A DNA stretch of 24,046 nt from the IMG/VR virus record IMGVR_UViG_3300012971_000079, positions 1 to 24,046 of that record; one strand, given 5' to 3'. Source of the stretch: a virus (lineage: Duplodnaviria; Caudoviricetes). Positions 3,422-22,986 of this stretch are shown here, piece by piece (the stretch's first letter is position 1; every line of letters starts with the position of its first letter). The position numbers were made by a program, and so were the translations under genes. The notes beneath the pieces were generated by a model. It was not told the origin of the DNA. It saw only the letters and a list, made by a program, of their open reading frames with translations, and searched no databases.

Positions 3422-6400
3422 ATGCCGGATTTTGCTTTCGAGTATTACGATAAACTCAACCGGCAGAACGAGGCCGAGAACCAAAAAGGTCTTGCCGATA
3501 TGTACCGGCGGGCCGGACTCGACGGCGCCGGAAACCCCGTTGATACCCCGCCAGTAACAACCACCAAACCCATACCAGTAAAGGCCGCACCAGCACAGCA
3601 AGGCGGATTTATGTCCGGGCTTGTAACCGGAGCCACGCAGGAAGGCCCGGCCGGCATGAACTCGCTTTTATCCAACGCCTTTCAAATACTTGACTCAGCA
3701 GCAACCAAAGTAAGCGAATGGACCGGGCTTAAAAAGGGCGGCGCTTTCGGAATGATCAGCAAGGCCTTAGATGATGCAGCCCGAGCGCAACAACCGAGCG
3801 AAAGAGACCTTCAGAGCCAGGAGAACTTTTCGGCTTACATTGGCCGAGCCGTCGGCGCCCTACCTTTTAGAGCAGCAGAGTATGTAGCCGGGACCGCAGC
3901 CACCGGAAACCCGATTGCCGGATGGGCTTTAGTGGATGCGGTTCGCCAGGCCGACAAGGGAGTATGGGAAGCAGCCAAGGGCGGGCTAGTCGGCGCGGCA
4001 ATGGGCCGCACCATGAAGGCCGCAGAACTCTTGCCGCTTTGGCAGAGGACCGCCACCGGCGCGGCATTATTCGGAGGAGTGGCAGCGGCAGAAGGGCAGG
4101 GCCTACCCGGAGTTTTATCAGGTGCGGCAGTCGGCGGTGCGATGGGAGCTATGGGAGGAGCAAGACCGCCGGCTAAAAGCAAAGTGACCGCAGCGGAGTT
4201 AAAAGCCGCAGAGGAGAGAGGAGTGCCAGAGCCAGCAAAACCAGCAGAACCCACAGCGCCACCAGAGCCCATAGCGCCAGGAGAGCCAGCGCCACCGCCA
4301 AGCCGGGAAACTCTAAGAGAAGTAGTCCGCGCACCGACGCCACCAGGTCAGGATATTCTGTTACCCGGGGGCGGCGTAATGCAAGGCCCGCGCTTGCCCT
4401 TGCCGGAACCCTCGCAGATTCAAGAGCGGATCCGCACCACCAACGAGCGAGCCCGAGAATTAATGACCGAAGCCGAACGGCCAACGCCCGAAAGCCAAGT
4501 TGACATTTTCCGCCAACCGCAAGACATACCGCTACCCGGTAAGGCCGGCGTAATGATATCGCCCAGGGCGGCGCTTTCAGACCTACGGGAAAAGATCGCC
4601 AGGGATAACGAGCTACAGCAGGCCCTAACAGACCTCGGCTTAAAGCCCGGAGATCGAAACGGCGAAGCCAAACTAATAGCCCATGCCGAGGCGGCAGGAA
4701 TTCAGCCCGAACAAGTCGGAAACGGCGCCAAGATAGTTAACGCAATCCCCGAGGCCAAGGCCGCGGTCAAAGAAGCGGCCCCTAAACTCTTTAAGGTAGA
4801 CCCCGGCATGATGGCCGAGATCAAAGGTCAAGTGGAACAGAGCACGGATCCGCATGCGCTTTTATCCATCACGGTTGATGCGGCTAACCCGAGGGACATA
4901 AGGCAATCCGCGGCAAACCGGCTAAACGCACTCAAGGCGAAAGACGTAGGCGCGGCGATCCGGGCCGGCGATGAGGCTTTTATAAAGAAAGTGGCGCAGT
5001 CGGGAATGTTGCCCACGACTTTTACCAGTCTTGCCAAGGGGATCCTAAAAGAGAAAAGGCCAGAACCGACCGAGCCGCCCAAACCTTCACCGCTTCTCGA
5101 AACCCTAAAAGGCCAGGCCGGTTTTACCGCAACCGACTTAAACTTTATGTTAGCGCGAGCCGTCGGCGGCGCCCTTTACGGCTATTCCCAGGGCGACACA
5201 ACCGAGGACCGAATCAAAAACGCCTTAATCTTTGCCGGGCTCGGAGCGATAGCTTCCCCCTCAATGATTAAGCGCATCATCACCAGCGCCAAAAAGGTAG
5301 ACCCGGAAATCATAAGGGAGCATTCCCGGCGCGATGAGGGCTTGAGCCCGACCGTCGATCACGCGGTTACCATGAAGCCCGAAGACGTGCGCGCGCTTGC
5401 CGACTATCTCCAGAAGCCGGAGGAACTCCCGACCACCGGCCGGTTCGAGGGCTTAAACTTCGACCACATAAACCAGCCCGAGGATGTGAAATTCGTTGTC
5501 TCGAAGATTCTTAACATGTTCCAGAAGGACATTGAGAAGGCGCGGGGATATCCAAGAGGGGAGGCCGAACCCGTAAGCCATGAGCAGACAATGTATGAGG
5601 CGCGAAAGCTCGCGAATGATCTAGGGATTACCGAAAGGGAGTTGCTTTTTTGGCCGGAAGGGAAGCCCATGACCCGGCAGGAAATGCAAGTTGCCAGGAT
5701 GTATGCCGCGGCATCGGACGCCGAGCTTATGTCGAGCTTGCAACAATATAAGGATAACCCCACGCCCGAGACCTCGAACAAGTTTTTGGACCGAGTAGCA
5801 AAGACCGCGCTGTTAAACCGCACGTTTGTGGCCGACGCTTCCGAGACCGCCCGGAAACTCGAAAGCCTAAAGATTGACGTGGCCGGCGACGAGATATTTT
5901 TCGTCAAGCATATAGGCGACGTATTGAGCGGTGTCCAAAAGACCGGCTGGAGTGTTGACCGGCTTGCCAACAGTCTTTTGGATTTAAAGGAACAGGCCAA
6001 ACGAAACCAGTTTGTAAATAACGCCAGCAAGCCGGGCAAGGCCGATGCCCTTTTAGAGCTTTGGTACGGCGCGTCGCTTCTGTCCAATCCGAAGACCCTA
6101 CTTGTCAACATGATAGGAACGCCGATGGCCTTGGGCTGGAGCATAGGCAAAAGGTTTATTGCGGCCGGCATGACCGAGGCAATGGGAAAGCGTGGCGATC
6201 CTAACTTTGTGCAGTTTAGTGAACCGATGGCTCAAATGTGGGGAATCCGCCAAGGTTATCAAGACGCATGGAAAGCAGCTTCGGACGCCTTTGAGCGTGG
6301 CATAAGAACAGTCGGAGGCTCGAGTAAGTTTGAAATACCAAGGGAAGGGCGGCTAAGAGCGGAAGCGTTTGGTTTAGATCCGGGCTCGATCCTAGGTCAG

Positions 6401-7885
6401 GGCTTGGACTACCTAGGCCACGCGGCGCGCTTTTTCCCGCGCGTCATGTTAGCGACCGATCAATATTGGGAAACGATAGCCCGGTCAATGGAAATATCCG
6501 CCAGGGCGGCGCGAGAGGCATCCAGCATGACTACAGACCCGCGCGAGATGGCCCGGCTCATGCGGCAGTTTACTATAGAGGATAATGTCCCGCCGGGATG
6601 GAAGGAAGCCGCCGACCGATTCGCGGTCTACAATTCCTTTAACTCGGAACTCGGCGGACTCATGTCGAAGATGAACCAGGGAATCGGCGGGCTCAAAGAC
6701 TCCGGGCCAATGGGACCGGCTTACTATTTATTGCTCAAATCAGTGGCGCCTTTTATCACTATCCCTACGAATATCGCCAAATGGACCATACACGAGGGAC
6801 CGCTGGCGATGCTTTCAAATCACTTCTATCAAGAAGTCGCCAAGGGCGGCGCGGATGCCCAACTCGCTTTTGCCGGCGTTGCGCTAGGCTCGATGCTGAT
6901 GGCAACAGGGGCATACCTCGCGAAGGAAATGACCTTGACCGGACGCGGGCCGGCAGACGCCGAACAGCGAAAAATGCTAGAAGCGGAATACGGTTGGCGT
7001 CCTGACTCTTTAAAGATAGCGGATAAGTACGTCGCCATTGACCGGCTCGACCCCATAGCGATGCCCTTAACGTGGGCTGCAGACATGGTTGAGGTCGCGG
7101 GCCACGTAGACGACGCGGATTACTTTCAGCTCGGAGGTGCGGCAGTCTTAGCACTTACTCGGTCGCTTGCCAATAAGACTTATCTCCAAGGTGTGACGAA
7201 CTTCTTTGACGCCATTTTCTCAAACGAGCCCAAGAAGATGTATAAGTTTATGGCCGGGGAAGTGACCTCGTTTGTTCCGGGCTTTGTGCGCGGAATCCGC
7301 CAGCAGACCGACCCCTACACCCGCCAAGTGAATACCATGATGGACGCCCTTTATAATCAGGTGCCCGGATATTCCAAACTTCTCCCACCCGTGACCGACG
7401 CTTTCGGGAAACCGATCCTATCTGGGTACGGCGCCGGCGACGACTTTGTGAAAATCTTTGGGATCATAAACCCGATTGCATACCGCACCAAAACCGATAA
7501 CGCGGTTGTAGATGAGATCCTAAAAAACCGTGTCCAAATATCGACACCTTCAGACACCATCTTTGGAACTTCAGATAGCCCGTGGGACTTTAAACCACCT
7601 GACGCCCGAAACGGCGTCAAACTCCAGCCGTGGGAGTATCACGCCTATAAAAAGCTATCGGGCGAGTTTGCCATGGAAAAGTTAGGCGAGCTAATTCAAT
7701 CCGACCGCTACCAAAGAGCCAGCGCTGGCCCGGACGGCGGCAAGGCTATGATGATTAGAAACGTGATCGCGGTATCCCGCGAGTATGGACGCAAGGAACT
7801 TTTAAAGCAGCTACCGGCAATCGACCAGGCCGTAAGAGATAAGCTAGAGGCCCGGCGCGAGGCGCTTCGAGCTTCCGGGCAATAA
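3422..7885 (+). CDS. Large internal virion / DNA-ejection protein (C-terminal region LPD38-like)
   Basis: 1487 aa with Gly/Ala-zipper hydrophobic segments, a Pro-rich linker, and the motifs LTGRGP, YGWRPDSLKIADKYVAIDRLDP and NKTYLQGV typical of large podophage ejection proteins. Confidence 0.7.
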   Translation: MPDFAFEYYDKLNRQNEAENQKGLADMYRRAGLDGAGNPVDTPPVTTTKPIPVKAAPAQQGGFMSGLVTGATQEGPAGMNSLLSNAFQILDSAATKVSEWTGLKKGGAFGMISKALDDAARAQQPSERDLQSQENFSAYIGRAVGALPFRAAEYVAGTAATGNPIAGWALVDAVRQADKGVWEAAKGGLVGAAMGRTMKAAELLPLWQRTATGAALFGGVAAAEGQGLPGVLSGAAVGGAMGAMGGARPPAKSKVTAAELKAAEERGVPEPAKPAEPTAPPEPIAPGEPAPPPSRETLREVVRAPTPPGQDILLPGGGVMQGPRLPLPEPSQIQERIRTTNERARELMTEAERPTPESQVDIFRQPQDIPLPGKAGVMISPRAALSDLREKIARDNELQQALTDLGLKPGDRNGEAKLIAHAEAAGIQPEQVGNGAKIVNAIPEAKAAVKEAAPKLFKVDPGMMAEIKGQVEQSTDPHALLSITVDAANPRDIRQSAANRLNALKAKDVGAAIRAGDEAFIKKVAQSGMLPTTFTSLAKGILKEKRPEPTEPPKPSPLLETLKGQAGFTATDLNFMLARAVGGALYGYSQGDTTEDRIKNALIFAGLGAIASPSMIKRIITSAKKVDPEIIREHSRRDEGLSPTVDHAVTMKPEDVRALADYLQKPEELPTTGRFEGLNFDHINQPEDVKFVVSKILNMFQKDIEKARGYPRGEAEPVSHEQTMYEARKLANDLGITERELLFWPEGKPMTRQEMQVARMYAAASDAELMSSLQQYKDNPTPETSNKFLDRVAKTALLNRTFVADASETARKLESLKIDVAGDEIFFVKHIGDVLSGVQKTGWSVDRLANSLLDLKEQAKRNQFVNNASKPGKADALLELWYGASLLSNPKTLLVNMIGTPMALGWSIGKRFIAAGMTEAMGKRGDPNFVQFSEPMAQMWGIRQGYQDAWKAASDAFERGIRTVGGSSKFEIPREGRLRAEAFGLDPGSILGQGLDYLGHAARFFPRVMLATDQYWETIARSMEISARAAREASSMTTDPREMARLMRQFTIEDNVPPGWKEAADRFAVYNSFNSELGGLMSKMNQGIGGLKDSGPMGPAYYLLLKSVAPFITIPTNIAKWTIHEGPLAMLSNHFYQEVAKGGADAQLAFAGVALGSMLMATGAYLAKEMTLTGRGPADAEQRKMLEAEYGWRPDSLKIADKYVAIDRLDPIAMPLTWAADMVEVAGHVDDADYFQLGGAAVLALTRSLANKTYLQGVTNFFDAIFSNEPKKMYKFMAGEVTSFVPGFVRGIRQQTDPYTRQVNTMMDALYNQVPGYSKLLPPVTDAFGKPILSGYGAGDDFVKIFGIINPIAYRTKTDNAVVDEILKNRVQISTPSDTIFGTSDSPWDFKPPDARNGVKLQPWEYHAYKKLSGEFAMEKLGELIQSDRYQRASAGPDGGKAMMIRNVIAVSREYGRKELLKQLPAIDQAVRDKLEARREALRASGQ

Positions 7886-8173: not shown

Positions 8174-8383
8174 TTGGACTATTTCAAACTCGGTTCTGAC
8201 CTCGTGAGAACTCAGGCCGAGGAATTAAGCGCCCGCTGTATATGCGGACATCAACGCTATCAGCACGTTTTAAGTGAAGCGAAAGAATCGACTCCCGAGA
8301 ATCCGCTTTATTGGTGCACGGCTAAAGTTTCCCGCGAAATGTATTGTCTGTGTGAAAATTTTTGTGACGAGGAAAACAAATAA
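8174..8383 (+). CDS. Small Cys/His-rich (Zn-binding) phage protein
   Basis: TTG start with a perfect AAGGAGGTGA SD; CICGHxxxxH...C...CLCENF. Confidence 0.65.
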   Translation: MDYFKLGSDLVRTQAEELSARCICGHQRYQHVLSEAKESTPENPLYWCTAKVSREMYCLCENFCDEENK

Positions 8384-8402
8384 GAAGGAGAATAAATTTT
8401 TT

Positions 8403-9431
8403 ATGCCCCAAAAAATTTCAAACATTATTGGATATACCGCCTTACTTCTCTTGATCGCGGCTTCCGTCTATAGCGCGGAACCGCGACAGCCAAAAACGCT
8501 TTCGTACACATTGGTCCCGATCACGGACCAAACGACTACGCCGATAGCGATCAATGATAACGATGTTGTGTTAGTTGAGCGCCAGCTTGTCGCGCAAGCG
8601 CAAGCGGCACCTTTGCTGATAAACAAGCGCGGCAAAGAATCGCCGCCGTGGCAATGTCCCGGAACCGTCAATGACACGGTAGGCGAGAACCTAAATAACT
8701 TGAATCAAATCGTCGGGCACTGTGGACATCAACCAGGCTTCACCACGATGGCTTTTGTCGCCAATCCCTTGACAGGTGCTTACAGGCTTCTTGCGTTTCC
8801 AGGGGCTGCGGCGACGTGGGGCTTCGGGGTAAACGACGCGGGTTCTGTGATTGGATTCTATTCCAATCCTACGCACGCACTCGACAGCCACGGCTTTGTC
8901 TGGGACTCAGTAAACGGTTATCGCACTCTTGATTTGCCCTTCCTAAACGGCGGGCCGACCCGGCTACTTGGCATCAACAACGCCGGCGCAGTGGTGGGCT
9001 TCACCTATACCGACCTCCTTGTAGATTTTGAAGTCCATAGCTGGATCTACGAGGGCGGCACCTTCACCACGATTCAGCATCCGGACGCTTTCGATGAACT
9101 GAGCACCTTTATTCAGGGCTTCAACAACAACGGGCAGATATTTGGAAGCTATGAGGGGCCAGGCTGTTTCCAGTCGGGTAGTTGCTTGTTCTCGTGGGAC
9201 GACGGCAAATTTTCGCCCGTGACGCTGCCGGTGCCTGACAACGCGCTGCGGCCCGATGGTGTCGCGACCAAGGCGACCATATTTGGGCTGCAGGGTTACA
9301 ACGATAATCAAGAATTCATCGGCACATATTTTCAGACCCTTACCTGGAAGCTAAACGAATACGGCGACTATGTAAGCGCGACTTTTAATCTGGTCGACTT
9401 CATCGCCAAGCCAGTGAAAGGAGGAAGATGA
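8403..9431 (+). CDS. Secreted beta-propeller protein with HAF-like extracellular repeats
   Basis: ATG8403 with SD AAGGAG gives the signal peptide MPQKISNIIGYTALLLLIAASVYSA. Six repeats follow: AINDNDVV, NLNNLNQIVG, GVNDAGSVIG, GINNAGAVVG, GFNNNGQIFG, GYNDNQEFIG. Confidence 0.75.
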   Translation: MPQKISNIIGYTALLLLIAASVYSAEPRQPKTLSYTLVPITDQTTTPIAINDNDVVLVERQLVAQAQAAPLLINKRGKESPPWQCPGTVNDTVGENLNNLNQIVGHCGHQPGFTTMAFVANPLTGAYRLLAFPGAAATWGFGVNDAGSVIGFYSNPTHALDSHGFVWDSVNGYRTLDLPFLNGGPTRLLGINNAGAVVGFTYTDLLVDFEVHSWIYEGGTFTTIQHPDAFDELSTFIQGFNNNGQIFGSYEGPGCFQSGSCLFSWDDGKFSPVTLPVPDNALRPDGVATKATIFGLQGYNDNQEFIGTYFQTLTWKLNEYGDYVSATFNLVDFIAKPVKGGR

Positions 9432-10654: not shown

Positions 10655-11602
10655 ATGAAATTTTTAGCAATCGTGTCCCTATTTTTTTTCCCTGCGATAG
10701 CTTATAGCGAAGTGACTTGCCACAACGCACAACCAGAGGAGTTAGCCTGTGGGCCTGTGACCGTGCCAAACCAAATTGGATCTATACTTACAATCTCGAC
10801 CAACTTTAATACGAACACGTGCGCACGCTTTTCTGATATAGACGTCCGCACCACCGGCAGCGGCATTAACCTTGTAGGCCCGATTGTGGCTCAAGTACCT
10901 AATGAAAGCGTTTGGTTTGTGTGGCGTACCCCTACGCAGGTAGTGTCCAATTGGTCCTGTACGATGACCGTTAAGGTCAACGGGCGCATTCCTATTCCTG
11001 GTGTGCAAAAAGATATTCATCGGCAAAACAGTCAGGCAGCAGACCAATGGGCCAACGCGATATTTGCCAGCGCCGCCCTTATAGCGCTTTCGCCTGATAA
11101 AGTTGCTGCCGCAGTGCTGGCGATAGCTGGGGGAACCCTTAAAATTATCTCCAATCGGCAACAAGGGCTTGCAGATGACCCTCCTGGTCCTGACTGCTAC
11201 GAGCTCGTTGATCCACCTTGGCCCGCAAGCGGCCAGCCTATAGACATAGTTGGAATGGATTCGGTGCCATATATCGGCGAGTATTGGCATGACCTTTTAA
11301 CGAGCTATGCCAATGGCCTACTTGGAAATGATGCCGTTGCGATTGAGGCTTACGGTATTTCGGCGCGAGCGAGCGCCGACAGGGCGCTAACTTGCCTTGA
11401 ACAACAAGATTTAGCATGGAATGACTTGCAGACCGAGCGGGCGCACTATTTCATTCGGCAAATGGGCGTAGGACTTAGTGATGCGAGCTACAACCTTTGG
11501 GTACTACAATGGATCTTCGAGCAAATCGGTATTGACCCTGGATTAACTGATGCTGCAATTTTGACAGGTGAGATGGGGTGGAACTATCAACAGGTGCAAT
11601 AA
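10655..11602 (+). CDS. Secreted Cys-containing protein of unknown function
   Basis: SD GGAGG; signal peptide MKFLAIVSLFFFPAIAYS; beta-rich N-domain, hydrophobic Ala-rich hairpin, ADDPP motif and helical C-domain. Confidence 0.7.
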   Translation: MKFLAIVSLFFFPAIAYSEVTCHNAQPEELACGPVTVPNQIGSILTISTNFNTNTCARFSDIDVRTTGSGINLVGPIVAQVPNESVWFVWRTPTQVVSNWSCTMTVKVNGRIPIPGVQKDIHRQNSQAADQWANAIFASAALIALSPDKVAAAVLAIAGGTLKIISNRQQGLADDPPGPDCYELVDPPWPASGQPIDIVGMDSVPYIGEYWHDLLTSYANGLLGNDAVAIEAYGISARASADRALTCLEQQDLAWNDLQTERAHYFIRQMGVGLSDASYNLWVLQWIFEQIGIDPGLTDAAILTGEMGWNYQQVQ

Positions 11603-11844
11603 TGATAAAAATCGCTGAAAGTATCATCTTCATTTTGGTGGGATTAATAAAACTCAACCGAGATTTTCCATGGTTGGCGAGCAGTCTTATTGACATCCTA
11701 ATGGTGTTTGTCGGCGCTGCTATCTTCATAAGTTTGTGGGTTTACATCCCACTACTAGACGGTTTTACTTTTTTTACCCTGGCGGCCTGGATAATAGGCC
11801 AATGGTGGGAAAACAAGAAAGGAGATTTTTATGTCGAACAATAA
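11602..11844 (+). CDS. Small membrane protein (about 3 TM segments)
   Basis: TAATG-coupled start at 11602 (MIKIAESIIFILVGL...); three hydrophobic stretches and a basic tail. Confidence 0.65.
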   Translation: MIKIAESIIFILVGLIKLNRDFPWLASSLIDILMVFVGAAIFISLWVYIPLLDGFTFFTLAAWIIGQWWENKKGDFYVEQ

Positions 11845-12988
11845 CGGCCCGCTTCTAAAGCCGGCCGAAAAACAGACCGCTTACCTAAAGGCCGGAATCC
11901 TAGGCTTTGCCGCATCCGGGAAAACTTACACCGCTGCAGCTATCGCGCGCGGGCTTGCGCTACTAGAGGAGCAGGCCGGGAGAAAAAAGGCGGTTGCGTT
12001 CTTTGATACCGAGACCGGGTCGGACTACGTCGTCGACGGATTCAAAAAGCAAGGGATTGAGCTTTTAGTCGCCAAGACGCGCGCCTTTTCCGACCTTTTG
12101 ACCGTGGTCAAAGAGGCCGAGCAGACTTGCTCCGTCCTAATCGTCGACTCAATCAGCCACGTTTGGACCGAACTCGTCGACGCCTATCTTCACAAGAAGA
12201 ATAAGGATCGCCTTGCGGTTTGGGACTGGAACCCCATTAAAACCGAGTGGCGCCAGTTCACAGACCTTTATCTTTGCTCCAAGCTCCACATCATAATCTG
12301 CGGCCGCGCGGGCAACGTTTACGAAGAATACCTTAACGAAAGGGGGGAAAAAGAGATCCTCAAGACAGGTACGAAAATGCGCGTTGAAACGGAGTTTGGT
12401 TATGAGCCGTCCTTGCTGATTGAGATGGAAAGAATCCAGCCCGAGCAGAACCCGAAAAAGAAAAAAGGGTCGGCCTTTGTCCACCGCGCAACAATCCTCA
12501 AAGACCGCTCAGACATCATGATGGGAAAGCAGATAGATGACCCCGGCTTCGCGGACTTCTTGCCTGTCATAAAGTCGCTTAACATCGGCGGCGAACATTT
12601 CGTTTTGGACACGTCCCGCACCTCGGACGAGATGATTAAGGACTCCGACCGCTCGCTTGAGGATCGGCGGAAATTCCAGGAGATTTATACCGAGGAGATT
12701 GAAGGCCAGATCGTTTCCGCTTTCCCAGGCCAGTCGGCTGCGGAAAAGAAGATCAAGGCGGACATCCTCGAGGTGGTTTTCGACTCCCGGTCGTGGACCA
12801 AAATCAAGATGTTTCCGCCCGAGGAGTTACAAAAGGGACTTCAGTCTATCAAGTATCTTTGCCGGCGGATAGCCGAAAACGAGGACGCCGAGGCGGTGAC
12901 GCTTCAGTGGCTTCGCGGCGAGCTTGTAAAGGCCGAACCACCCCAGACCCCACCTGCACCTGAGCCCGAACAAGAATCGCTGATCTAG
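11831..12988 (+). CDS. P-loop ATPase, AAA_24/Sak4-like recombination protein
   Basis: Walker A GFAASGKT, FFDTETGS, Walker B VLIVDSISHVW, HIIICGR and FGYEPSL. Confidence 0.8.
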   Translation: MSNNNGPLLKPAEKQTAYLKAGILGFAASGKTYTAAAIARGLALLEEQAGRKKAVAFFDTETGSDYVVDGFKKQGIELLVAKTRAFSDLLTVVKEAEQTCSVLIVDSISHVWTELVDAYLHKKNKDRLAVWDWNPIKTEWRQFTDLYLCSKLHIIICGRAGNVYEEYLNERGEKEILKTGTKMRVETEFGYEPSLLIEMERIQPEQNPKKKKGSAFVHRATILKDRSDIMMGKQIDDPGFADFLPVIKSLNIGGEHFVLDTSRTSDEMIKDSDRSLEDRRKFQEIYTEEIEGQIVSAFPGQSAAEKKIKADILEVVFDSRSWTKIKMFPPEELQKGLQSIKYLCRRIAENEDAEAVTLQWLRGELVKAEPPQTPPAPEPEQESLI

Positions 12989-13345: not shown

Positions 13346-14440
13346 ATGGACATGCCGCATCTACCATTTTTTCAATTTTACACCGCTGATTGGATTCAGG
13401 ACACTCAGGTCTTAAACCACACCGCCAAAGGATGCTGGATTGACATACTTTGCCAGCTCTGGATTTCACCAACTCCAGGCGAGCAAACGTGGAACCGACG
13501 GGAGTTTATAACGCTCGTCAGATTAGACAACCACCAGACAACCACCGCGTTACTAATAAAAGACCTCTCTACAGTGGCTGAAATTTACCTCAAAGATGAG
13601 GCTGGAAACGTGTCAGATGTGCATGAGGATTGGGCTTTTATAAAGATAATAAGCCGCAGAATGGTACGCGACTGGCATAAGCTAAATGCTCGAAAAGACA
13701 AGTATAAAAAGTACAACCGCAAAAGAACGACCAAAGAACGACCGAAAAACCACCAGGTTACCACTTCATTTACCACTTCACAACCACCGCCTAACCACCA
13801 AGAAACCACCGATAGAATTCAGAATTCATATATCAGAAGTCAGAACTCAGATACATATGTCAGTTCTAAATCCGATATTAAGTACTTAAAAGATCCAGCC
13901 GCTAATGCGGCTGCATATGCAGACCCATCCGGGTCTGGATCTTTTAAAAATAAAAGTTCGGATTCGGATGCGGCTTCGCCGGATCGGAGCGCGCCAAGCG
14001 CGGACTCGGACAGCAGCAACGGCAATCACGGGGAGCCGTGGCGGCCGGCGTTTCTCAGAATCTTCTCTTTCGATCCTCACCGCTTCAACCGCCTGATCGT
14101 TTGGGTTCAGGCCCAAAAAAAACTCAACTACCCGGAGATCGTCATCAAGCAGGCTCTCGAACGCTTCGAAGAATTCGACCGCGGGAACAAGATCGAGGAC
14201 TGGTGGCCCTACCTGCAGAAGATTTTGAAAAAAGAGTTTGCCCGCCACCAAGACTCGGAGCACGAGACCCGTAAAAGCGAGACCCGTAAAAGCGAGGAGC
14301 GTAAAAGCGCACTTCGAGCCCTCGCGCGCGGAGACTCGAGCCCCGTAAAGAACGCCCTAGACATGTCCGACAAGGAGCGCGCGGCAACACTTTCCAGATT
14401 GCGCGCTTTGCGGGAGGGGATAGGCCGGAGGGTGAATTGA
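13346..14440 (+). CDS. Replication initiator (DUF1376/YdaU-type N-terminus)
   Basis: LPFFQFYTADWIQDT..L....KGCWIDILCQLW; low-complexity centre encoded by phased repeats; short helical C-domain. Confidence 0.8.
   Translation: MDMPHLPFFQFYTADWIQDTQVLNHTAKGCWIDILCQLWISPTPGEQTWNRREFITLVRLDNHQTTTALLIKDLSTVAEIYLKDEAGNVSDVHEDWAFIKIISRRMVRDWHKLNARKDKYKKYNRKRTTKERPKNHQVTTSFTTSQPPPNHQETTDRIQNSYIRSQNSDTYVSSKSDIKYLKDPAANAAAYADPSGSGSFKNKSSDSDAASPDRSAPSADSDSSNGNHGEPWRPAFLRIFSFDPHRFNRLIVWVQAQKKLNYPEIVIKQALERFEEFDRGNKIEDWWPYLQKILKKEFARHQDSEHETRKSETRKSEERKSALRALARGDSSPVKNALDMSDKERAATLSRLRALREGIGRRVN
13716..13890. repeat. Iteron array and AT-rich heptamer tract: probable replication origin
   Basis: AC(C/G)(A/G)C cores at 13716, 13727, 13738, 13749, 13760, 13772, 13783, 13794 and 13805 (11-bp period), then AGAATTC AGAATTC ATATATC AGAAGTC AGAACTC. 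Confidence 0.75.
14263..14309 (+). repeat. 15-bp tandem repeat x3 within the initiator gene
   Basis: CGAGACCCGTAAAAG x2 then CGAGGAGCGTAAAAG, encoding ETRKS ETRKS EERKS. Confidence 0.9.
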
Positions 14441-14601: not shown

Positions 14602-14926
14602 AAATGCGAGACGACTTCGCGGCCGAGGCGGGCGCAAAAAACTAGCCGAGCATGAGAAGACCAAATTTGCGGCAGAAATCGTGCGCCAGATTATCGAGGC
14701 CCACGCTAAGCCGATAGCGCTTCAGTTCGTAAAGCGCGCGCAGAAATCAGATCGAGTTTTGATCGCTGCCGTTGATAAACTCCTGCCCGAGATCAACCGC
14801 ACTGCGAATGAGCGGCCTATTGCAATTCAGATCATAATCGAAAGCCCCAATAACCAAGGGACAAACGGAGCGGCGCACCCGGACGCTGAAGGCGATAGCA
14901 AACGTTTGATAGTCATTGAGACATGA
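14585..14926 (+). CDS. terS: Probable terminase small subunit
   Basis: MPFTRENARRLRGRGGRKK N-terminus, helical body, beta-tail IAIQIII; upstream of terL. Confidence 0.6.
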   Translation: MPFTRENARRLRGRGGRKKLAEHEKTKFAAEIVRQIIEAHAKPIALQFVKRAQKSDRVLIAAVDKLLPEINRTANERPIAIQIIIESPNNQGTNGAAHPDAEGDSKRLIVIET

Positions 14927-15426
14927 AAGGATTTTGCAAAAACGGACACGATCTTAGTGTGAGCCAATACGTGAACGGCAACACGGGCAAGCGCCGTTGT
15001 GGTATCTGCCAGAACGAATATAGGCGTAATCGCTATCACGGAACACACGGGGAAAAGATTCGAATAAGAAACCTGGCTTACCACAACAATCACAGCGCTG
15101 ACATCTACCGCCGCCGCCGAGAACGTCGCAAGCAACACCCAGAGAAGTACCTAAACCAACTAAGGCGTAATCGAGCCCGCCGTAATGGAATTTCGGTTGC
15201 TCAACTCGACCAGATGGAAAAAGATCAACGTGGTAGATGCGCGGCGTGTCATCGTAAAGCTACGCTTGTTGTGGATCATTGCCATGTAAGTGGAATTGCG
15301 CGCCACCTACTGTGCAACCAATGCAACACCGCAGTAGGTCTATTGCAAGATAGCCCGGAAAGAATCAGAAAACTTTTAAATTATGTCGTTAGAGTCTCCC
15401 AAATCGTCATTGCAACTCAAAGTTAA
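14923..15426 (+). CDS. Endonuclease VII-family (Endonuclease_7) protein, probable free-standing homing endonuclease
   Basis: QRGRCAAC...LVVDHCHVSGIARHLLCNQCNTAVGLLQDSPERI...Y; N-terminal CKNGH...CGIC Zn module. Confidence 0.9.
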   Translation: MKGFCKNGHDLSVSQYVNGNTGKRRCGICQNEYRRNRYHGTHGEKIRIRNLAYHNNHSADIYRRRRERRKQHPEKYLNQLRRNRARRNGISVAQLDQMEKDQRGRCAACHRKATLVVDHCHVSGIARHLLCNQCNTAVGLLQDSPERIRKLLNYVVRVSQIVIATQS

Positions 15427-16798: not shown

Positions 16799-16984
16799 AT
16801 GGGATTTTTATTTAGTCCGCCGAAGCCGCCCAAGCCCCCGCCGGTTCCAACCGTAACTAGTCCGGACGTGCAGCAGGCAGCGGCAGACGCGCAGCGAAGA
16901 GCCGCGCTAGCTCGAGGGCGCGCATCCACGATCTTAACCGCGCAGGTGCCGGGCAAGGTGCCGCTAGGAGTGGTAGGAGGATAA
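16799..16984 (+). CDS. Small Pro-rich virion-module protein preceding the portal
   Basis: MGFLFSPPKPPKPPPVP...RRAALARGRASTILT, the pattern commonly seen just upstream of podophage head-tail connector genes. Confidence 0.7.
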   Translation: MGFLFSPPKPPKPPPVPTVTSPDVQQAAADAQRRAALARGRASTILTAQVPGKVPLGVVGG

Positions 16985-17260
16985 ATGGGATTTCTGCTTC
17001 CTCGGTCCATTCCCTTTTTACCGGAAATTTCACACAACATATGGCGTAAGTTTGTTCACAAGGTGAAGGTTATAAGCCGAGAAAATAGACGGCCACAAGT
17101 CGACCGGATAGATAGATGGATTTACGTCATACAAATGCGCAAGACCGGAAATTCTTTCAGGGAAATAGGGAAAGCGTTGGGTGTAACAAGACAGTATGCT
17201 TGCTCACTTTACAAAGAAGCCGTAAGAGCGGGGCAACGTTGGATTGAAAAACATCCATGA
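16985..17260 (+). CDS. Sigma70-region-4-like HTH protein
   Basis: MRKTGNSFREIGKALGVTRQYACSLY; SD GGAGG. Confidence 0.7.
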   Translation: MGFLLPRSIPFLPEISHNIWRKFVHKVKVISRENRRPQVDRIDRWIYVIQMRKTGNSFREIGKALGVTRQYACSLYKEAVRAGQRWIEKHP

Positions 17261-17445
17261 GCGTACCCGACGACATCGTAAAGAAGGAATCAGATAACAA
17301 TCAGGACTGGACTCCCGGCGACGTTATCTCCGCATACGAAGACGGTTTTATCGTGCTCGATGACGGGACGATAGTCTATAACCCGATAAGGGCTAGGGAA
17401 TTCTTAAAAACGACAAATGAGTCTACCCGACGACATCGTAAAGAA
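17257..17445 (+). repeat. 29-bp direct repeat (17257-17285 and 17417-17445)
   Basis: ATGAGCGTACCCGACGACATCGTAAAGAA vs ATGAGTCTACCCGACGACATCGTAAAGAA, 27/29 identical. Confidence 0.95.
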
Positions 17446-17451
17446 CTTTGA
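17257..17451 (+). CDS. Hypothetical protein whose first 9 codons copy the portal start
   Basis: MSVPDDIVK vs portal MSLPDDIVK; ATGA-coupled to the upstream gene. Confidence 0.6.
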   Translation: MSVPDDIVKKESDNNQDWTPGDVISAYEDGFIVLDDGTIVYNPIRAREFLKTTNESTRRHRKEL

Positions 17452-19692: not shown

Positions 19693-19958
19693 GAAATGGC
19701 CGAAAGAAGATCCGCCGTATCATCTATCGCCAACACTCAGACGAGCAGATACGAGCGGCGATCAAGGCAGCCTGCCCGGAAGGATCTATATTTGCTGATT
19801 ACCTTCAGACGGTTTGTCTCGAGCTGGTTGAAGCGCCAACTGAGTTTGAAAGGGGAGTGGCGGAAGGAAAGCGCCGGCTGGCCGGGGAGATTTTAACTAT
19901 CGCGATCACGCCGGACACCGACATAACGGTAGAAAGGAGTTTAGATCATGCCCCTTGA
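19689..19958 (+). CDS. Bbp19-like protein (between portal and scaffold)
   Basis: FERGVAEGKRRLAGEIL motif, size and position. Confidence 0.6.
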   Translation: MRNGRKKIRRIIYRQHSDEQIRAAIKAACPEGSIFADYLQTVCLELVEAPTEFERGVAEGKRRLAGEILTIAITPDTDITVERSLDHAP

Positions 19959-20787
19959 ACTACCAGCGGAGATTTCCCAGGGAATCCCCGCCGACGTTTT
20001 GTCAAACAACGCCGTTCAACGTTACAACGATATCGGCTCTTTGATGAAGGGCCACATTGAGGCGGAGAACTATATTCGGAGCGGCAAGGCGGTTGCGCTC
20101 CCGGCCGAGGACGCCAAGCCCGAAGATTTGGAGAAGTGGAAATCTGAAAACCTTTCCAAGTTTTCCAAAGTCATAGACCTACCGCCGTCAAAGGCCGAGG
20201 AGTACGAATTCAAGTTTGAAGGCGTATCTAGCGACGTTCTAAAAAACGATCAGCTTTTAAGCTCTTTTCGCGACACCGCGCACAAGTACGGCCTATCCAA
20301 AGCGCAGGCCGCAGGGATAGCGCAGGCATTTGCAACCGAGATCGCTCCTCGGCTTGCACCCCAAGGGCCGCAAGTTGAGTTTATCGAGGGACAAGAACCT
20401 GTTGACAGCTTGATGAAAGAAGTTTTCAAAGGCGAAGCGCCTAAACGACTCGACGAGTATAAGCGCGGCGTTGAAATTTTATCTCAGACCAACCCTAGAC
20501 TAAAGGATCTTTTAAACGATGGCATTGCACCATGGGAAGGAAAGTTCACAGCGTTAGGAGATAACCCGACTATAGTCCAACTCATTACCGACGTTGGCCG
20601 GCTTACGGGTCAGGACTTTGGCGGACACGTAGCACCAAACGATAGGGCAGTGCTTGACGCCCAGGAAGAAATCAACCAGATTATGCACAACAAAGAGCAC
20701 CCGTGGCACGAGCGTTGGAGAAAAGGGGATAGGACCGCGCGCGAGCACATGAACGAACTTTATAAGTCGGTAACCGGAGGAAGATAA
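19948..20787 (+). CDS. Capsid assembly scaffolding protein
   Basis: SLMKGHIEAE, LP.EDA.PE, PPSKAEEYEF, FRDTAHKYGLSKAQA, LGDNPTIVQL and C-terminal EINQIM..HPW; lies between portal and MCP. Confidence 0.78.
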   Translation: MPLELPAEISQGIPADVLSNNAVQRYNDIGSLMKGHIEAENYIRSGKAVALPAEDAKPEDLEKWKSENLSKFSKVIDLPPSKAEEYEFKFEGVSSDVLKNDQLLSSFRDTAHKYGLSKAQAAGIAQAFATEIAPRLAPQGPQVEFIEGQEPVDSLMKEVFKGEAPKRLDEYKRGVEILSQTNPRLKDLLNDGIAPWEGKFTALGDNPTIVQLITDVGRLTGQDFGGHVAPNDRAVLDAQEEINQIMHNKEHPWHERWRKGDRTAREHMNELYKSVTGGR

Positions 20788-21156
20788 TGCCGGCGACTTT
20801 GCTAAAACAAGGGCTAACGTTTCAACAATGGAAAGCTCAATATGCGCCACACGATTCAGGGAAGGACTATGACTTACGCGGTGCGTATGAAGCCGGCATT
20901 GTGCCGGGGCCAGATCAACATTTTCCTGACACGTTTAAGCTCCCCGGACATCCGACCTTTTCCATTGAGTCTAAATATTGGAAGCCCGGCATGCCAGCGG
21001 GACGGTGGGAGGGCGAAAAATATATCCCGATGGATGCAAAGACAGCAGCCGAATGGGTGAAGACCCATCCGCAAAAATAGGAGATAAAATGCCTTTAGCA
21101 GGACCGCGCGCGAGCACATGAACGAACTTTATAAGTCGGTAACCGGAGGAAGATAA
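20731..21156 (+). repeat. Perfect 57-bp direct repeat (20731-20787 and 21100-21156) of the scaffold gene 3' end
   Basis: AGGACCGCGCGCGAGCACATGAACGAACTTTATAAGTCGGTAACCGGAGGAAGATAA occurs twice. Confidence 0.97.
20787..21080 (+). CDS. Hypothetical phage protein (cargo X)
   Basis: TAATG-coupled; DYDLRG...HFPDTFKLPGHPTFSIESKY...GRW motif. Confidence 0.7.
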   Translation: MPATLLKQGLTFQQWKAQYAPHDSGKDYDLRGAYEAGIVPGPDQHFPDTFKLPGHPTFSIESKYWKPGMPAGRWEGEKYIPMDAKTAAEWVKTHPQK

Positions 21157-21372
21157 AATATGCATTATGACTATCGGGGAGACGAGGAGCATTGCATTTT
21201 CGATAATCCTAGGGATCTTGATGCGGTCGAGATTCTACACGCGGAACAGTGGAAACCTGGAATAATGCAGTTATATGTTCGTCACCCGAAACTTAACCCC
21301 TGCCAGTTTACTATCGCCTATTGTGCGACAGGACTTTTCGAGAACAGGGAGGCAAAATGCCATTAGCAGGAC
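21086..21372 (+). repeat. 19-bp direct repeat (21086-21104 and 21354-21372) of the start of gene 21357
   Basis: AAAATGCCTTTAGCAGGAC vs AAAATGCCATTAGCAGGAC, 18/19 identical; both are preceded by a GGAG SD. Confidence 0.9.
21160..21366 (+). CDS. Hypothetical protein (cargo Y)
   Basis: Uses the GGAGG SD supplied by the second 57-bp repeat. Confidence 0.55.
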   Translation: MHYDYRGDEEHCIFDNPRDLDAVEILHAEQWKPGIMQLYVRHPKLNPCQFTIAYCATGLFENREAKCH

Positions 21373-21527
21373 AGGCACAAAAGAGAGTGTCGGCAGCTAT
21401 GCGCGAAGTTCATTCGAACATTCCCTCGACCGTGCCGGCATGGGTGCGCAAGAATCCGAAGAAGCGCGAAGCGATGTTAAGGGCGATTGCCTTTTCCAAA
21501 GCGCGAAAAGCAGGAGCGAAAGTCTAA
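21357..21527 (+). CDS. Small basic protein (DUF6496-like)
   Basis: SD GGGAGG, MPLAGQAQKRVSAAMREVH...AIAFSKARKAGAKV. Confidence 0.7.
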   Translation: MPLAGQAQKRVSAAMREVHSNIPSTVPAWVRKNPKKREAMLRAIAFSKARKAGAKV

Positions 21528-21718
21528 TGCCTAAATTTCTAAACGTTGACACGTTTGACCCCGATATTGTAAAAGCGGTTCGTAGAATGACCGACAACGG
21601 CGCTTCGGTCGATGAGATTCAACGGGTGGTCGGGATGCCGCGTGAAGTGGTCGAGCGCCACAAGCGGGATTATGAAAACCAAAAGAAACGAGATCACGGT
21701 ATCAAGCCTGACGATTAA
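21527..21718 (+). CDS. Small HTH protein
   Basis: TAATG-coupled; VRRMTDNGASVDEIQRVVGMPREVVERH. The real start is probably 21527, not 21275. Confidence 0.65.
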   Translation: MPKFLNVDTFDPDIVKAVRRMTDNGASVDEIQRVVGMPREVVERHKRDYENQKKRDHGIKPDD

Positions 21719-22053
21719 AAGGGGGTGATAAATGAGCGGAGCCTTTAATTAGCAAAGTTCCCGACGTTGCAGGAGTAAAGAAACTTTGCGCAGACCCTAA
21801 ACCATCTAGACGATTTTATCCCACCTCATCCTTCCATAGGGCTGTCGTTTTAGGGTTTGTGGAAAGTTTAGACTTTCCAATTTCGGCCACCCTTCCTTTT
21901 AAAGGAAGTCCCGAATGAGGCCGACCTAAACAGTCGGCGTTTAGCGGCACGTTAGCCGTTAGATGAGCCCCGGCTTATGCCGGCTACCCTCTTCGAGGCG
22001 GTTTGGGAGACCCGCCAAAATGCTCCCAAATTTGAAGGGAAGGAGTGTTTCAA
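21719..22053 (+). promoter_or_regulatory. Long structured non-coding leader of the major capsid gene (candidate cis-regulatory RNA)
   Basis: Consecutive stems 21752-59/21782-89, 21790-801/21849-60, 21860-67/21872-79, 21882-21915, 21920-25/21933-38, 21941-48/21955-62 and 21965-21991, then a pseudoknot at 21997-22030. Confidence 0.65.
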
Positions 22054-22986
22054 GTGGCCGAAACAATCACCGAGTGGCAAAAACGCCAATTCAATTCCAA
22101 CGTTAAGTTTGTTTATCAGCAGATGGAATCAATGGTTACTAAGTACATTGATTCCGAGATGTATCACGGGAACGTGCAGGGGAACTTGGACGATTTCGAT
22201 GTTGCCGGCGCGTCGCTAACTAGAGATAAGGTTGACCGCTATGAGGAAACCCAATGGGGCGAGCTGGAGAAATCCCGGAGATGGTGTAGACCGATCCGGG
22301 CTTACCTCGCGCTGCCCTTGGACCGCTACGATAAAGTCAGATCCGCAATCGAGGACATCAATTCGATTCACACCCGGGCTATCGTTTACGCGCTACGGCG
22401 AAACGAGGATAAGCGGGCAATCGACGCGATGAACGGGCTGGCGCTCGGAGGAGAGCAGGCGACGGTATCAACCGCGCTTCCGTCCTCGCAGCAGATCGCT
22501 TTAGGGTCTTCACCGTCGGACGTTTTGAACTTAACCAAGATCAAGGCGGTATCGGCAAACTTCGATCAGAACGCTGTCCCAATCGGCAAGCGCCATTGGT
22601 TGTATTCACCGGGCCAAAAGTCGGCAATCCTCGCAATTACCCAGGCGGCAAGCTCGGACTTTACCGCGCATAAGATTTATGACCGGGGCGACATCGACTC
22701 TTTAGACTGGATGGGTTTTGTCTGGCATCACATCTTTGACGTGAAGAACCAGGGTGCGGCGGGCATCACGACGATTCAGCGCATGTTGCAACTAACTGGC
22801 ACAACGCGAACCAACTTGGCGTTTGCTTCCGACGCCGTGGGAGTCAGCAAGTGCGAAGACATCAAGACCGAACTCGATTATCTGCCGACCAAGACTTATA
22901 CCTGGCAGGCATTCGGCGAGATCGACGTAAACGCAGTCAGGGTTTTGGACGGCGGTGTAATGTCGATCCTTTGTAAGGAGGAGTAA
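22054..22986 (+). CDS. Major capsid protein (BPP-1 Bbp17-like, HK97 fold)
   Basis: GTG22054 with SD AGGAG 8 nt upstream. Q.FNSNV..VYQQMES, SRRWC, D..DKVR, YALRRNEDKRAIDA, LNLTKI, ASSDF, WMGFVW and AVRVLDGGV. Confidence 0.9.
   Translation: MAETITEWQKRQFNSNVKFVYQQMESMVTKYIDSEMYHGNVQGNLDDFDVAGASLTRDKVDRYEETQWGELEKSRRWCRPIRAYLALPLDRYDKVRSAIEDINSIHTRAIVYALRRNEDKRAIDAMNGLALGGEQATVSTALPSSQQIALGSSPSDVLNLTKIKAVSANFDQNAVPIGKRHWLYSPGQKSAILAITQAASSDFTAHKIYDRGDIDSLDWMGFVWHHIFDVKNQGAAGITTIQRMLQLTGTTRTNLAFASDAVGVSKCEDIKTELDYLPTKTYTWQAFGEIDVNAVRVLDGGVMSILCKEE

Follow-up and report, generated by a model that had tools for sequence, protein, structure and literature searches.

Two slot alleles in tandem between the scaffold and capsid genes of a short-tailed phage: the probable scar of a misaligned cross

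Introduction

How does a phage come to carry the end of one gene and the start of another twice over, with a different small gene in each of the two gaps? The window (i.e., the whole 24,046-nt stretch of DNA analyzed here, a single contig that makes up the entire assembly) is part of the genome of a short-tailed phage; it is incomplete and encodes terminase, portal, capsid, internal virion protein, and tail protein genes. Between a probable scaffold gene, so labeled from its position between the portal and capsid genes, and the major capsid protein gene, the window reads A-X-B'/A'-Y-B. Is the central join real DNA, is the interval a place where related phages carry different cargo, and what event would leave both gene ends duplicated? 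We propose that one misaligned cross stacked two alleles of a slot in tandem and left the duplicated ends between them as its scar, a reading to which we give a probability of roughly 0.65. The features needed for the argument are as follows.

11831..12988, + strand: AAA_24 ATPase with Sak4-like annealase similarity (PF13479, E 1.9e-11; phrog_124, E 9.3e-9)
15383: terminase gene
17417: portal/head-tail connector gene (PF12236)
19948..20787, + strand: probable capsid scaffold gene, 279 aa (phrog_3742, a family of unknown function, E 7.7e-12; 10 homologs)
20731..20787, + strand: A, first copy, comprising the scaffold 3' end with a GGAGG Shine-Dalgarno sequence and the stop; exact repeat
20787..20800, + strand: opening 14 nt of X, shared with the start of cargo Z in a related strain; left slot boundary
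20787..21080, + strand: cargo X, 97 aa, the stand-alone form of a widespread phage domain
21080..21104, + strand: B', a truncated copy of gene B consisting of its Shine-Dalgarno sequence and initial 16 coding nt; 22/25 against the B start
21089..21156, + strand: two chimeric mini-ORFs, MPLAGPRAST* and MNELYKSVTGGR*, read from sequence
21100..21104, + strand: AGGAC microhomology, the B'/A' junction, crossed by run X2 record 9
21100..21156, + strand: A', exact second copy of A; collapsed 57-nt contig, depth 15.4, in run X1
21160..21366, + strand: cargo Y, 68 aa, overlapping the B start by 10 nt
21346..21372, + strand: Shine-Dalgarno sequence and start of B; right slot boundary (run X7 joint, 20800 to 21346)
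21357..21527, + strand: gene B, 56 aa, a small basic protein; homologs in L089, L005, L006, and L109
21527..21718, + strand: gene C, 63 aa, with weak helix-turn-helix similarity; conserved in the interval
22075..22986, + strand: major capsid protein gene (PF19821, E 5.6e-46)

The capsid gene would start at the GTG at 22075, judging from its Shine-Dalgarno sequence, and its ORF is listed from 22045. Gene B is kept in the scaffold-capsid interval of related phages.

Both gene ends are duplicated around a 5-nt join

The initial annotation, made from the letters of the window, described an exact copy of the scaffold gene end, and the two stretches (20731-20787 and 21100-21156) are indeed identical at 57/57 positions; across 30 shuffled versions of the window, exact repeats reach at most 13-18 nt. 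The copy of the B start that it described (21086-21104 against 21354-21372) matches at 18/19, and the likeness extends to 22/25 when 21080-21104 is set against 21348-21372. The AGGAC at 21100-21104 closes the B copy and opens the A copy, as had been claimed, with no further match on either side. Given that a microhomology of at least 5 nt is expected at ~0.5% of random junctions (equal base frequencies), microhomology probably guided the cross. The ORFs that had been named, X (20787-21080), Y (21160-21366), MPLAGPRAST* (21089-21121), and MNELYKSVTGGR* (21118-21156), are all present, the two mini-ORFs being likely by-products of the join.

Do these mini-ORFs form a translation relay? The ATGA overlap on which that proposal was built is there. 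As evidence for a relay it is weak, because the ATGA lies at the same offset, 18, in the single-copy A of two relatives (L088 and L089) as in the window and because Y has its own GGAGG Shine-Dalgarno sequence; only a 1-in-3 frame match is left to explain. We therefore set the relay aside as a selected feature and regard it as largely incidental. Signals of other kinds are equally sparse: the region holds 2 promoter-like sites against 1.5 expected and no + strand terminator, one 9/12 promoter-like site overlaps A and is incomplete in A', and A folds worse than its own shuffles (z +1.67), i.e., with no hairpin above chance. Folding of the junction at 21075-21165 (top strand, z +1.34) likewise reveals no attC-type hairpin.

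The join in assembled contigs

Seven runs, all labeled soil metagenomes, hold the window. Six of them (X1-X5 and X7; 4 samples, 3 studies) were compared with it as assembled contigs, not raw reads. The test named beforehand was whether reads cross the B/A junction, and assembled contigs do cross it; a concatenation of two strains is not borne out. In run X2 (sample S2), one 355-nt contig (record 9) covers 20865-21219 with 0 differences, passing from X through the join into Y with 235 and 115 letters on the two sides. Contigs in runs X1 and X3 also pass the join and end at 21129, 25 letters beyond it, where the threshold for bridging was 31 letters, and in run X4, A' is joined to Y (21127-21290). 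The B'/A' junction thus exists as real DNA in 2 samples, and its presence in contigs of runs X1, X2, and X3 leads us to reject a concatenation by the assembler.

How many genomes carry X? In run X1, which may be the source sample of the window, A forms one collapsed 57-nt piece at depth 15.4, X stands at 8.6, and the backbone stands at 7.6 (length-weighted over four pieces), i.e., ratios to backbone of 2.02 for A and 1.13 for X, single-contig depth being a rough measure. Under a sampling model with an assumed 150-nt read, the X ratio has a P of 0.29 if all genomes carry X, 0.02 if 70% do, and 0.0006 if 50% do, from which we conclude that most genomes in run X1 carry X. Y has no cover in this run, of which ~84/100 was read, and the gap carries no weight. 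Contigs cannot phase X and Y across the 57-nt repeat, and they drop rare variants.

A variable slot between scaffold and capsid

The interval had been described as one slot with alternative cargo, and a survey of related genomes agrees: it takes at least four states, namely X (L088 and run X4), Z (runs X3 and X7), empty (L089), and X+Y (the window). The left boundary falls at the scaffold end or up to 14 nt beyond it, and the right boundary at the ribosome-binding site of B. At least four states with such boundaries indicate that the slot reading is right.

The individual states are as follows. L088 has a scaffold gene with 701/840 nt identical to that of the window, its own A (48/57), and then X (134/147 nt), inside which the contig ends; record 15 of run X4 has scaffold followed by X and is the same kind of strain. 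In run X7, a 573-nt contig (record 30) follows the scaffold end to 20800, passes into other DNA, and returns to the window sequence at 21346, where B has its Shine-Dalgarno sequence; the contig has a side of 59 letters and was aligned at 80% likeness, and it hence belongs to a related strain. Record 10 of run X3 departs from the window at the same base, 20800. We call the insert of runs X7 and X3 cargo Z, its sequence being known from a 30-nt loose end alone. In L089, whose capsid protein is 81% identical to that of the window and whose counterpart of A is identical at 35/57, B comes immediately behind the scaffold stop. In phages further removed, the interval has C and then B (L005, L006, and L109) or, elsewhere, a C-like gene alone, and L001 and L002 are distinguished by one clean 211-nt insertion in the interval. 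None of the 8 related loci tested (0/8) has a long near-exact repeat in the slot. The scaffold-capsid interval is, in short, a variable slot for which co-occurring relatives carry several alleles between conserved flanks.

A viral contig collection, from which near records may be missing, was scanned with two DNA motifs, P0041, and the scaffold and capsid proteins of the window and returned no close relatives, and no relative of the phage was found in the prokaryote genome contigs scanned. In run X4, the gene C of a related strain is extended by 36 nt at its end (window 21716-21717).

Cargo X and cargo Y

What are the two genes that have been stacked? X has 26 homologs including itself, of 55-170 aa, and its relatives are encoded in 524 viral stretches; 58 of the 80 loci kept sit in ORFs of at least 340 aa. 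The domain pattern W..YD..A..H.PD.FK.P.HPTFS.ES..G.W is found in L007-L086 and in the window. Neither Pfam nor PHROG has a family for X, and searches of annotated phages and of the Atlas returned no hit. Its structure model is confident (pLDDT 88); against the PDB the model has no match at Z 2 or more, and its best viral-structure matches (E 0.002-0.005) are unnamed or "putative structural" phage proteins. X is likely a virion-associated domain, and several invariant polar residues could form a binding or catalytic site. One candidate, P0038, is X with a reversed tail; it looks like an assembly fold-back and was set aside. Y finds only itself among 5.8 billion proteins, and its Atlas hits are all under 0.9.

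How the scar arose

The scar is real, recent, and well preserved. An off-register cross or the integration of a circle had been offered as its origin, and the data support an origin of this kind; both routes give the same product. We favor the cross. In this model, the partners would be a phage with X and a near-identical one with Y. On the left, the AGGAC in the start of B would be mispaired with the AGGAC that opens the last 57 nt of the scaffold gene; on the right, the crossover would take place by ordinary homologous recombination, within B or farther along. Such a cross would yield A-X-B'/A'-Y-B, and later recombination between the two A copies could delete X. The stacked product would be expected to be viable, since every essential gene stays whole and X and Y each retain a ribosome-binding site of their own. 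The versions of the B start at which X and Y end are different (22/25 alike), which fits both as former single occupants of the slot. Were suitable partners at hand? A scaffold on record is identical to that of the window at 278/279, with the difference inside A. It could stem from a second assembly of this DNA or from a sibling, and in the latter case it would indicate that near-identical partners were available. Neither parent is seen, as the A-X-B and A-Y-B joints are absent from the joints listed for the 6 runs and L088 ends inside X. The two A copies are identical at 57/57, while L088 differs at 9/57, which implies that the parents were very close or that the copies were later homogenized.

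Could the same sequence have come about in another way? An A-X-B' circle, closed at AGGAC in a phage with X and then inserted by homologous recombination into the 57-nt A of a phage with Y, would yield the observed sequence exactly and would account for two full A copies, and mini-circles between nearby repeats are documented for T4-like phages (PMC2839356). In contigs, a free circle would show the same junction words as the linear form. However, X shows no excess depth in run X1 (1.13x backbone), A is devoid of the promoter and stem-loop features of the T4-like cassettes, and a rare circle must persist into a coinfection; we regard this route as unlikely. Duplication may instead have come first, with A-X-B' duplicated by slippage at AGGAC and the second X later replaced by Y. 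Such a history would account for the 57/57 identity of A, against 48/57 in L088, and would draw on an allele exchange that is common in the slot, but it requires a two-X intermediate, which is unseen, and with B' and B differing at 3/25 nt, B must come from the donor while A' must not. To this order of events we grant a slim chance.

Two further accounts fare worse. Is the slot a dedicated switch, with A and B as reusable arms by which the Sak4-like protein expands and collapses it, so that progeny with X alone, with Y alone, and with both arise? Nearly the same boundaries recur in at least four slot states, a Sak4-like gene is present in the window, and gene-start duplications recur; moreover, the Sak4 of phage HK620 anneals oligonucleotides up to 20% diverged (PMC5928155). 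A switchable slot is also what the initial annotation inferred, and here it is not supported: joints 21104-21373 (X-B) and 20787-21157 (A-Y) are absent among the joints listed for the contigs of 6 runs, these contigs contain no X-only or Y-only genome of the strain, i.e., 0 collapsed forms, and depth in run X1 fits about one X per genome. The depth model places the X-bearing fraction in that run above ~0.7 (P 0.02 at 0.7, with read length assumed), 0/8 related loci have a long near-exact repeat, A is plain coding sequence without structure (z +1.67), and B' offers 19-25 nt only. A dedicated switch is in our judgment very improbable. The protein at 11831 is a candidate recombinase with a putative role in the scar. 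Finally, the whole arrangement might be a product of assembly, in which the 57-nt repeat served to link two strains, or a genome with Y and a free circle with X, into one contig. Several related strains do co-occur in the samples, two head modules share one contig of another phage (L090 and L092), and the evidence here consists of contigs. Against this stand the B'/A' junction sequence in runs X1, X2, and X3 (2 samples), a B' too short to mislead an assembler, and an X depth equal to that of the backbone, and we find it extremely hard to credit. The L090/L092 contig itself is 87.9 kb long and has the head module twice, with and without a 211-nt gene; it is probably two strains joined by the assembler.

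A second scar at the portal and possible gene-start joins

If alleles can be stacked once, does the window hold other traces of the kind? There is a second scar, in which 42 nt around the portal start occur twice.

17244-17285 and 17404-17445, + strand: second scar, the two copies 81% identical, with 22 nt exact

The ORF at 17257-17451 opens with the first 9 codons of the portal gene, 8/9 residues being the same, and this duplication ranks at the top of 528 start pairs (19/21 nt; mean 5.5). The window version of this portal slot is bridged by record 18 of run X5, and other alleles, with other DNA between 16982 and 17416, are found in runs X7, X1, and X4. The variable slot itself lies between gene 16799 and the portal gene (window 16799-17451). 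Genes 16799 and 16985 have an MGFL start in common (13/21 nt), which we do not count as a scar because it barely exceeds the tail of the 528 pairs, two of which reach 12.

Similar likenesses appear at the starts of other genes. The N terminus of X, of the L088 X, and of P0012 resembles the B N terminus of L005, L006, and L109, a likeness that 0/237 other starts equal, in a test that was post hoc and rests on these three related B sequences; the other 24 X homologs have no B-like N terminus. In L004 and L105, a small gene before the scaffold gene has a start region that matches the scaffold start at 20/29 nt, mostly in the ribosome-binding region, which exceeds all 6,037 distant pairs from 14 sequences, and within L004 the start regions of the small gene and the scaffold gene (2095-2117 and 2299-2321) agree at 21/23 nt. 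These sequence comparisons suggest that newcomers often join inside the start of a resident gene (the portal, X, and the scaffold of one relative), a pattern that would be mildly new.

Does such a pattern call for a special mechanism? Selection for junctions that keep expression can account for start joins without a dedicated system. We can also imagine start capture, in which incoming DNA is joined again and again within the opening codons of resident genes (B, portal, or scaffold) and the duplicated ends serve as reusable arms, the head-gene slots expanding and collapsing as an accordion driven by the Sak4-like protein. The newcomer would thereby inherit a working translation start and would bring a fresh start for the resident behind it. 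We think this rather unlikely; if it were true as a rule of the clade, it would supply a concrete mechanism by which new phage genes arrive already wired for translation.

Comparison with known systems

Misaligned crossing between phage variants is a known way for phages to gain genes. Junctions in phage mosaics are usually erased before they are seen, and that of the window is fresh: its repeat is exact, its 5-nt microhomology can still be read, and sister alleles of the slot occur in related samples. As it stands, we are dealing with an ordinary kind of event, well preserved, and for that reason with a clean teaching and test case for phages adding rather than swapping genes.

The closest printed case in the literature covered is that of genes 67 and 68 of mycobacteriophage Island3, where a small additional gene is bordered by a ~60-bp copy of the preceding gene's 3' end: 60 bp are common to the 3' ends of the two genes, and Brujita has one copy (PMC3029335). 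The authors there could not separate deletion from intermolecular insertion, and they describe allele substitution at gene boundaries beside this example (PMC3029335). As in Island3, the extra gene of the window lies next to a short copy of a neighboring gene's end, and the relatives of the window are single copy without the extra gene (L089 is empty, the run X7 strain has one other cargo, and 0/8 loci have a long repeat). The Island3 repeat, as described there, ends the extra gene and is diverged, whereas the repeat in the window is exact, both slot ends are duplicated, and the microhomology is visible. Boundary-sequence and illegitimate-recombination models of mosaicism, as outlined in PMC3029335, place junctions at or near gene ends and starts that keep genes intact and expressed, as here; in the window, the ends of the neighboring genes themselves, and no separate linkers, are the conserved arms.

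How does the locus compare with other variable regions? In flexible phage genes and metagenomic islands, a stable core is accompanied by coexisting variants of short regions, which recombination exchanges (PMC7468147). Variants and their presence or absence are treated there, and the paper does not use the word "tandem," whereas in the window two variants are stacked in one genome. The PeSL cassettes of T4-type phages are repeat-flanked orphan genes with mini-circles, and the likeness is plain insofar as an orphan gene of a variable region lies between short direct repeats, and recombination between these could excise or insert it (PMC2839356). PeSLs are multicopy intergenic elements of ~100 bp with a promoter and a stem-loop, whereas A is a two-copy coding sequence without either (PMC2839356). 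The repeat has no strong sigma-70 promoter with a terminator stem-loop, and in the 24 kb of this incomplete genome it has two coding copies instead of many intergenic ones.

Is there, then, an analogy to integrons? Integron cassettes are promoterless small genes in a row behind a fixed site, as in the window. The window differs in that no integrase was found, no attC-like hairpin is present, and there are only two units; scans of 32 and 30 window proteins, from an incomplete genome, contained no tyrosine integrase. The literature covered, mostly without subscription papers and supplements, holds no report of stacked alleles or gene-start capture in phages.

Other features of the window and its relatives

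Several further observations fall outside the slot. An endonuclease VII family gene at 14923-15426 overlaps the start of the terminase gene and may be a homing endonuclease. A replication gene contains 48-nt adjacent inverted arms, 73% alike, at 13869-13964. Two genes, at 8274-9431 and 10655-11602, have signal-peptide-like starts and no family match, which is unusual among replication genes, and they are possibly host-directed cargo.

Upstream of the capsid gene lies a structured leader that is conserved in 6 phages, at the following positions.

21875-22070: window
6885-7030: L089
6090-6255: L002
3408-3578: L004
9725-9900: L109
4835-4990: L006

The leader has no Rfam match, and there are 0 Rfam matches across the whole window. 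It has 24 predicted pairs, 15 of them with changes on both sides, and is a possible regulatory RNA. In L003, at about 5860-6400, an insertion of ~570 nt that is missing from L001, L002, and L004 sits between the leader and the capsid start.
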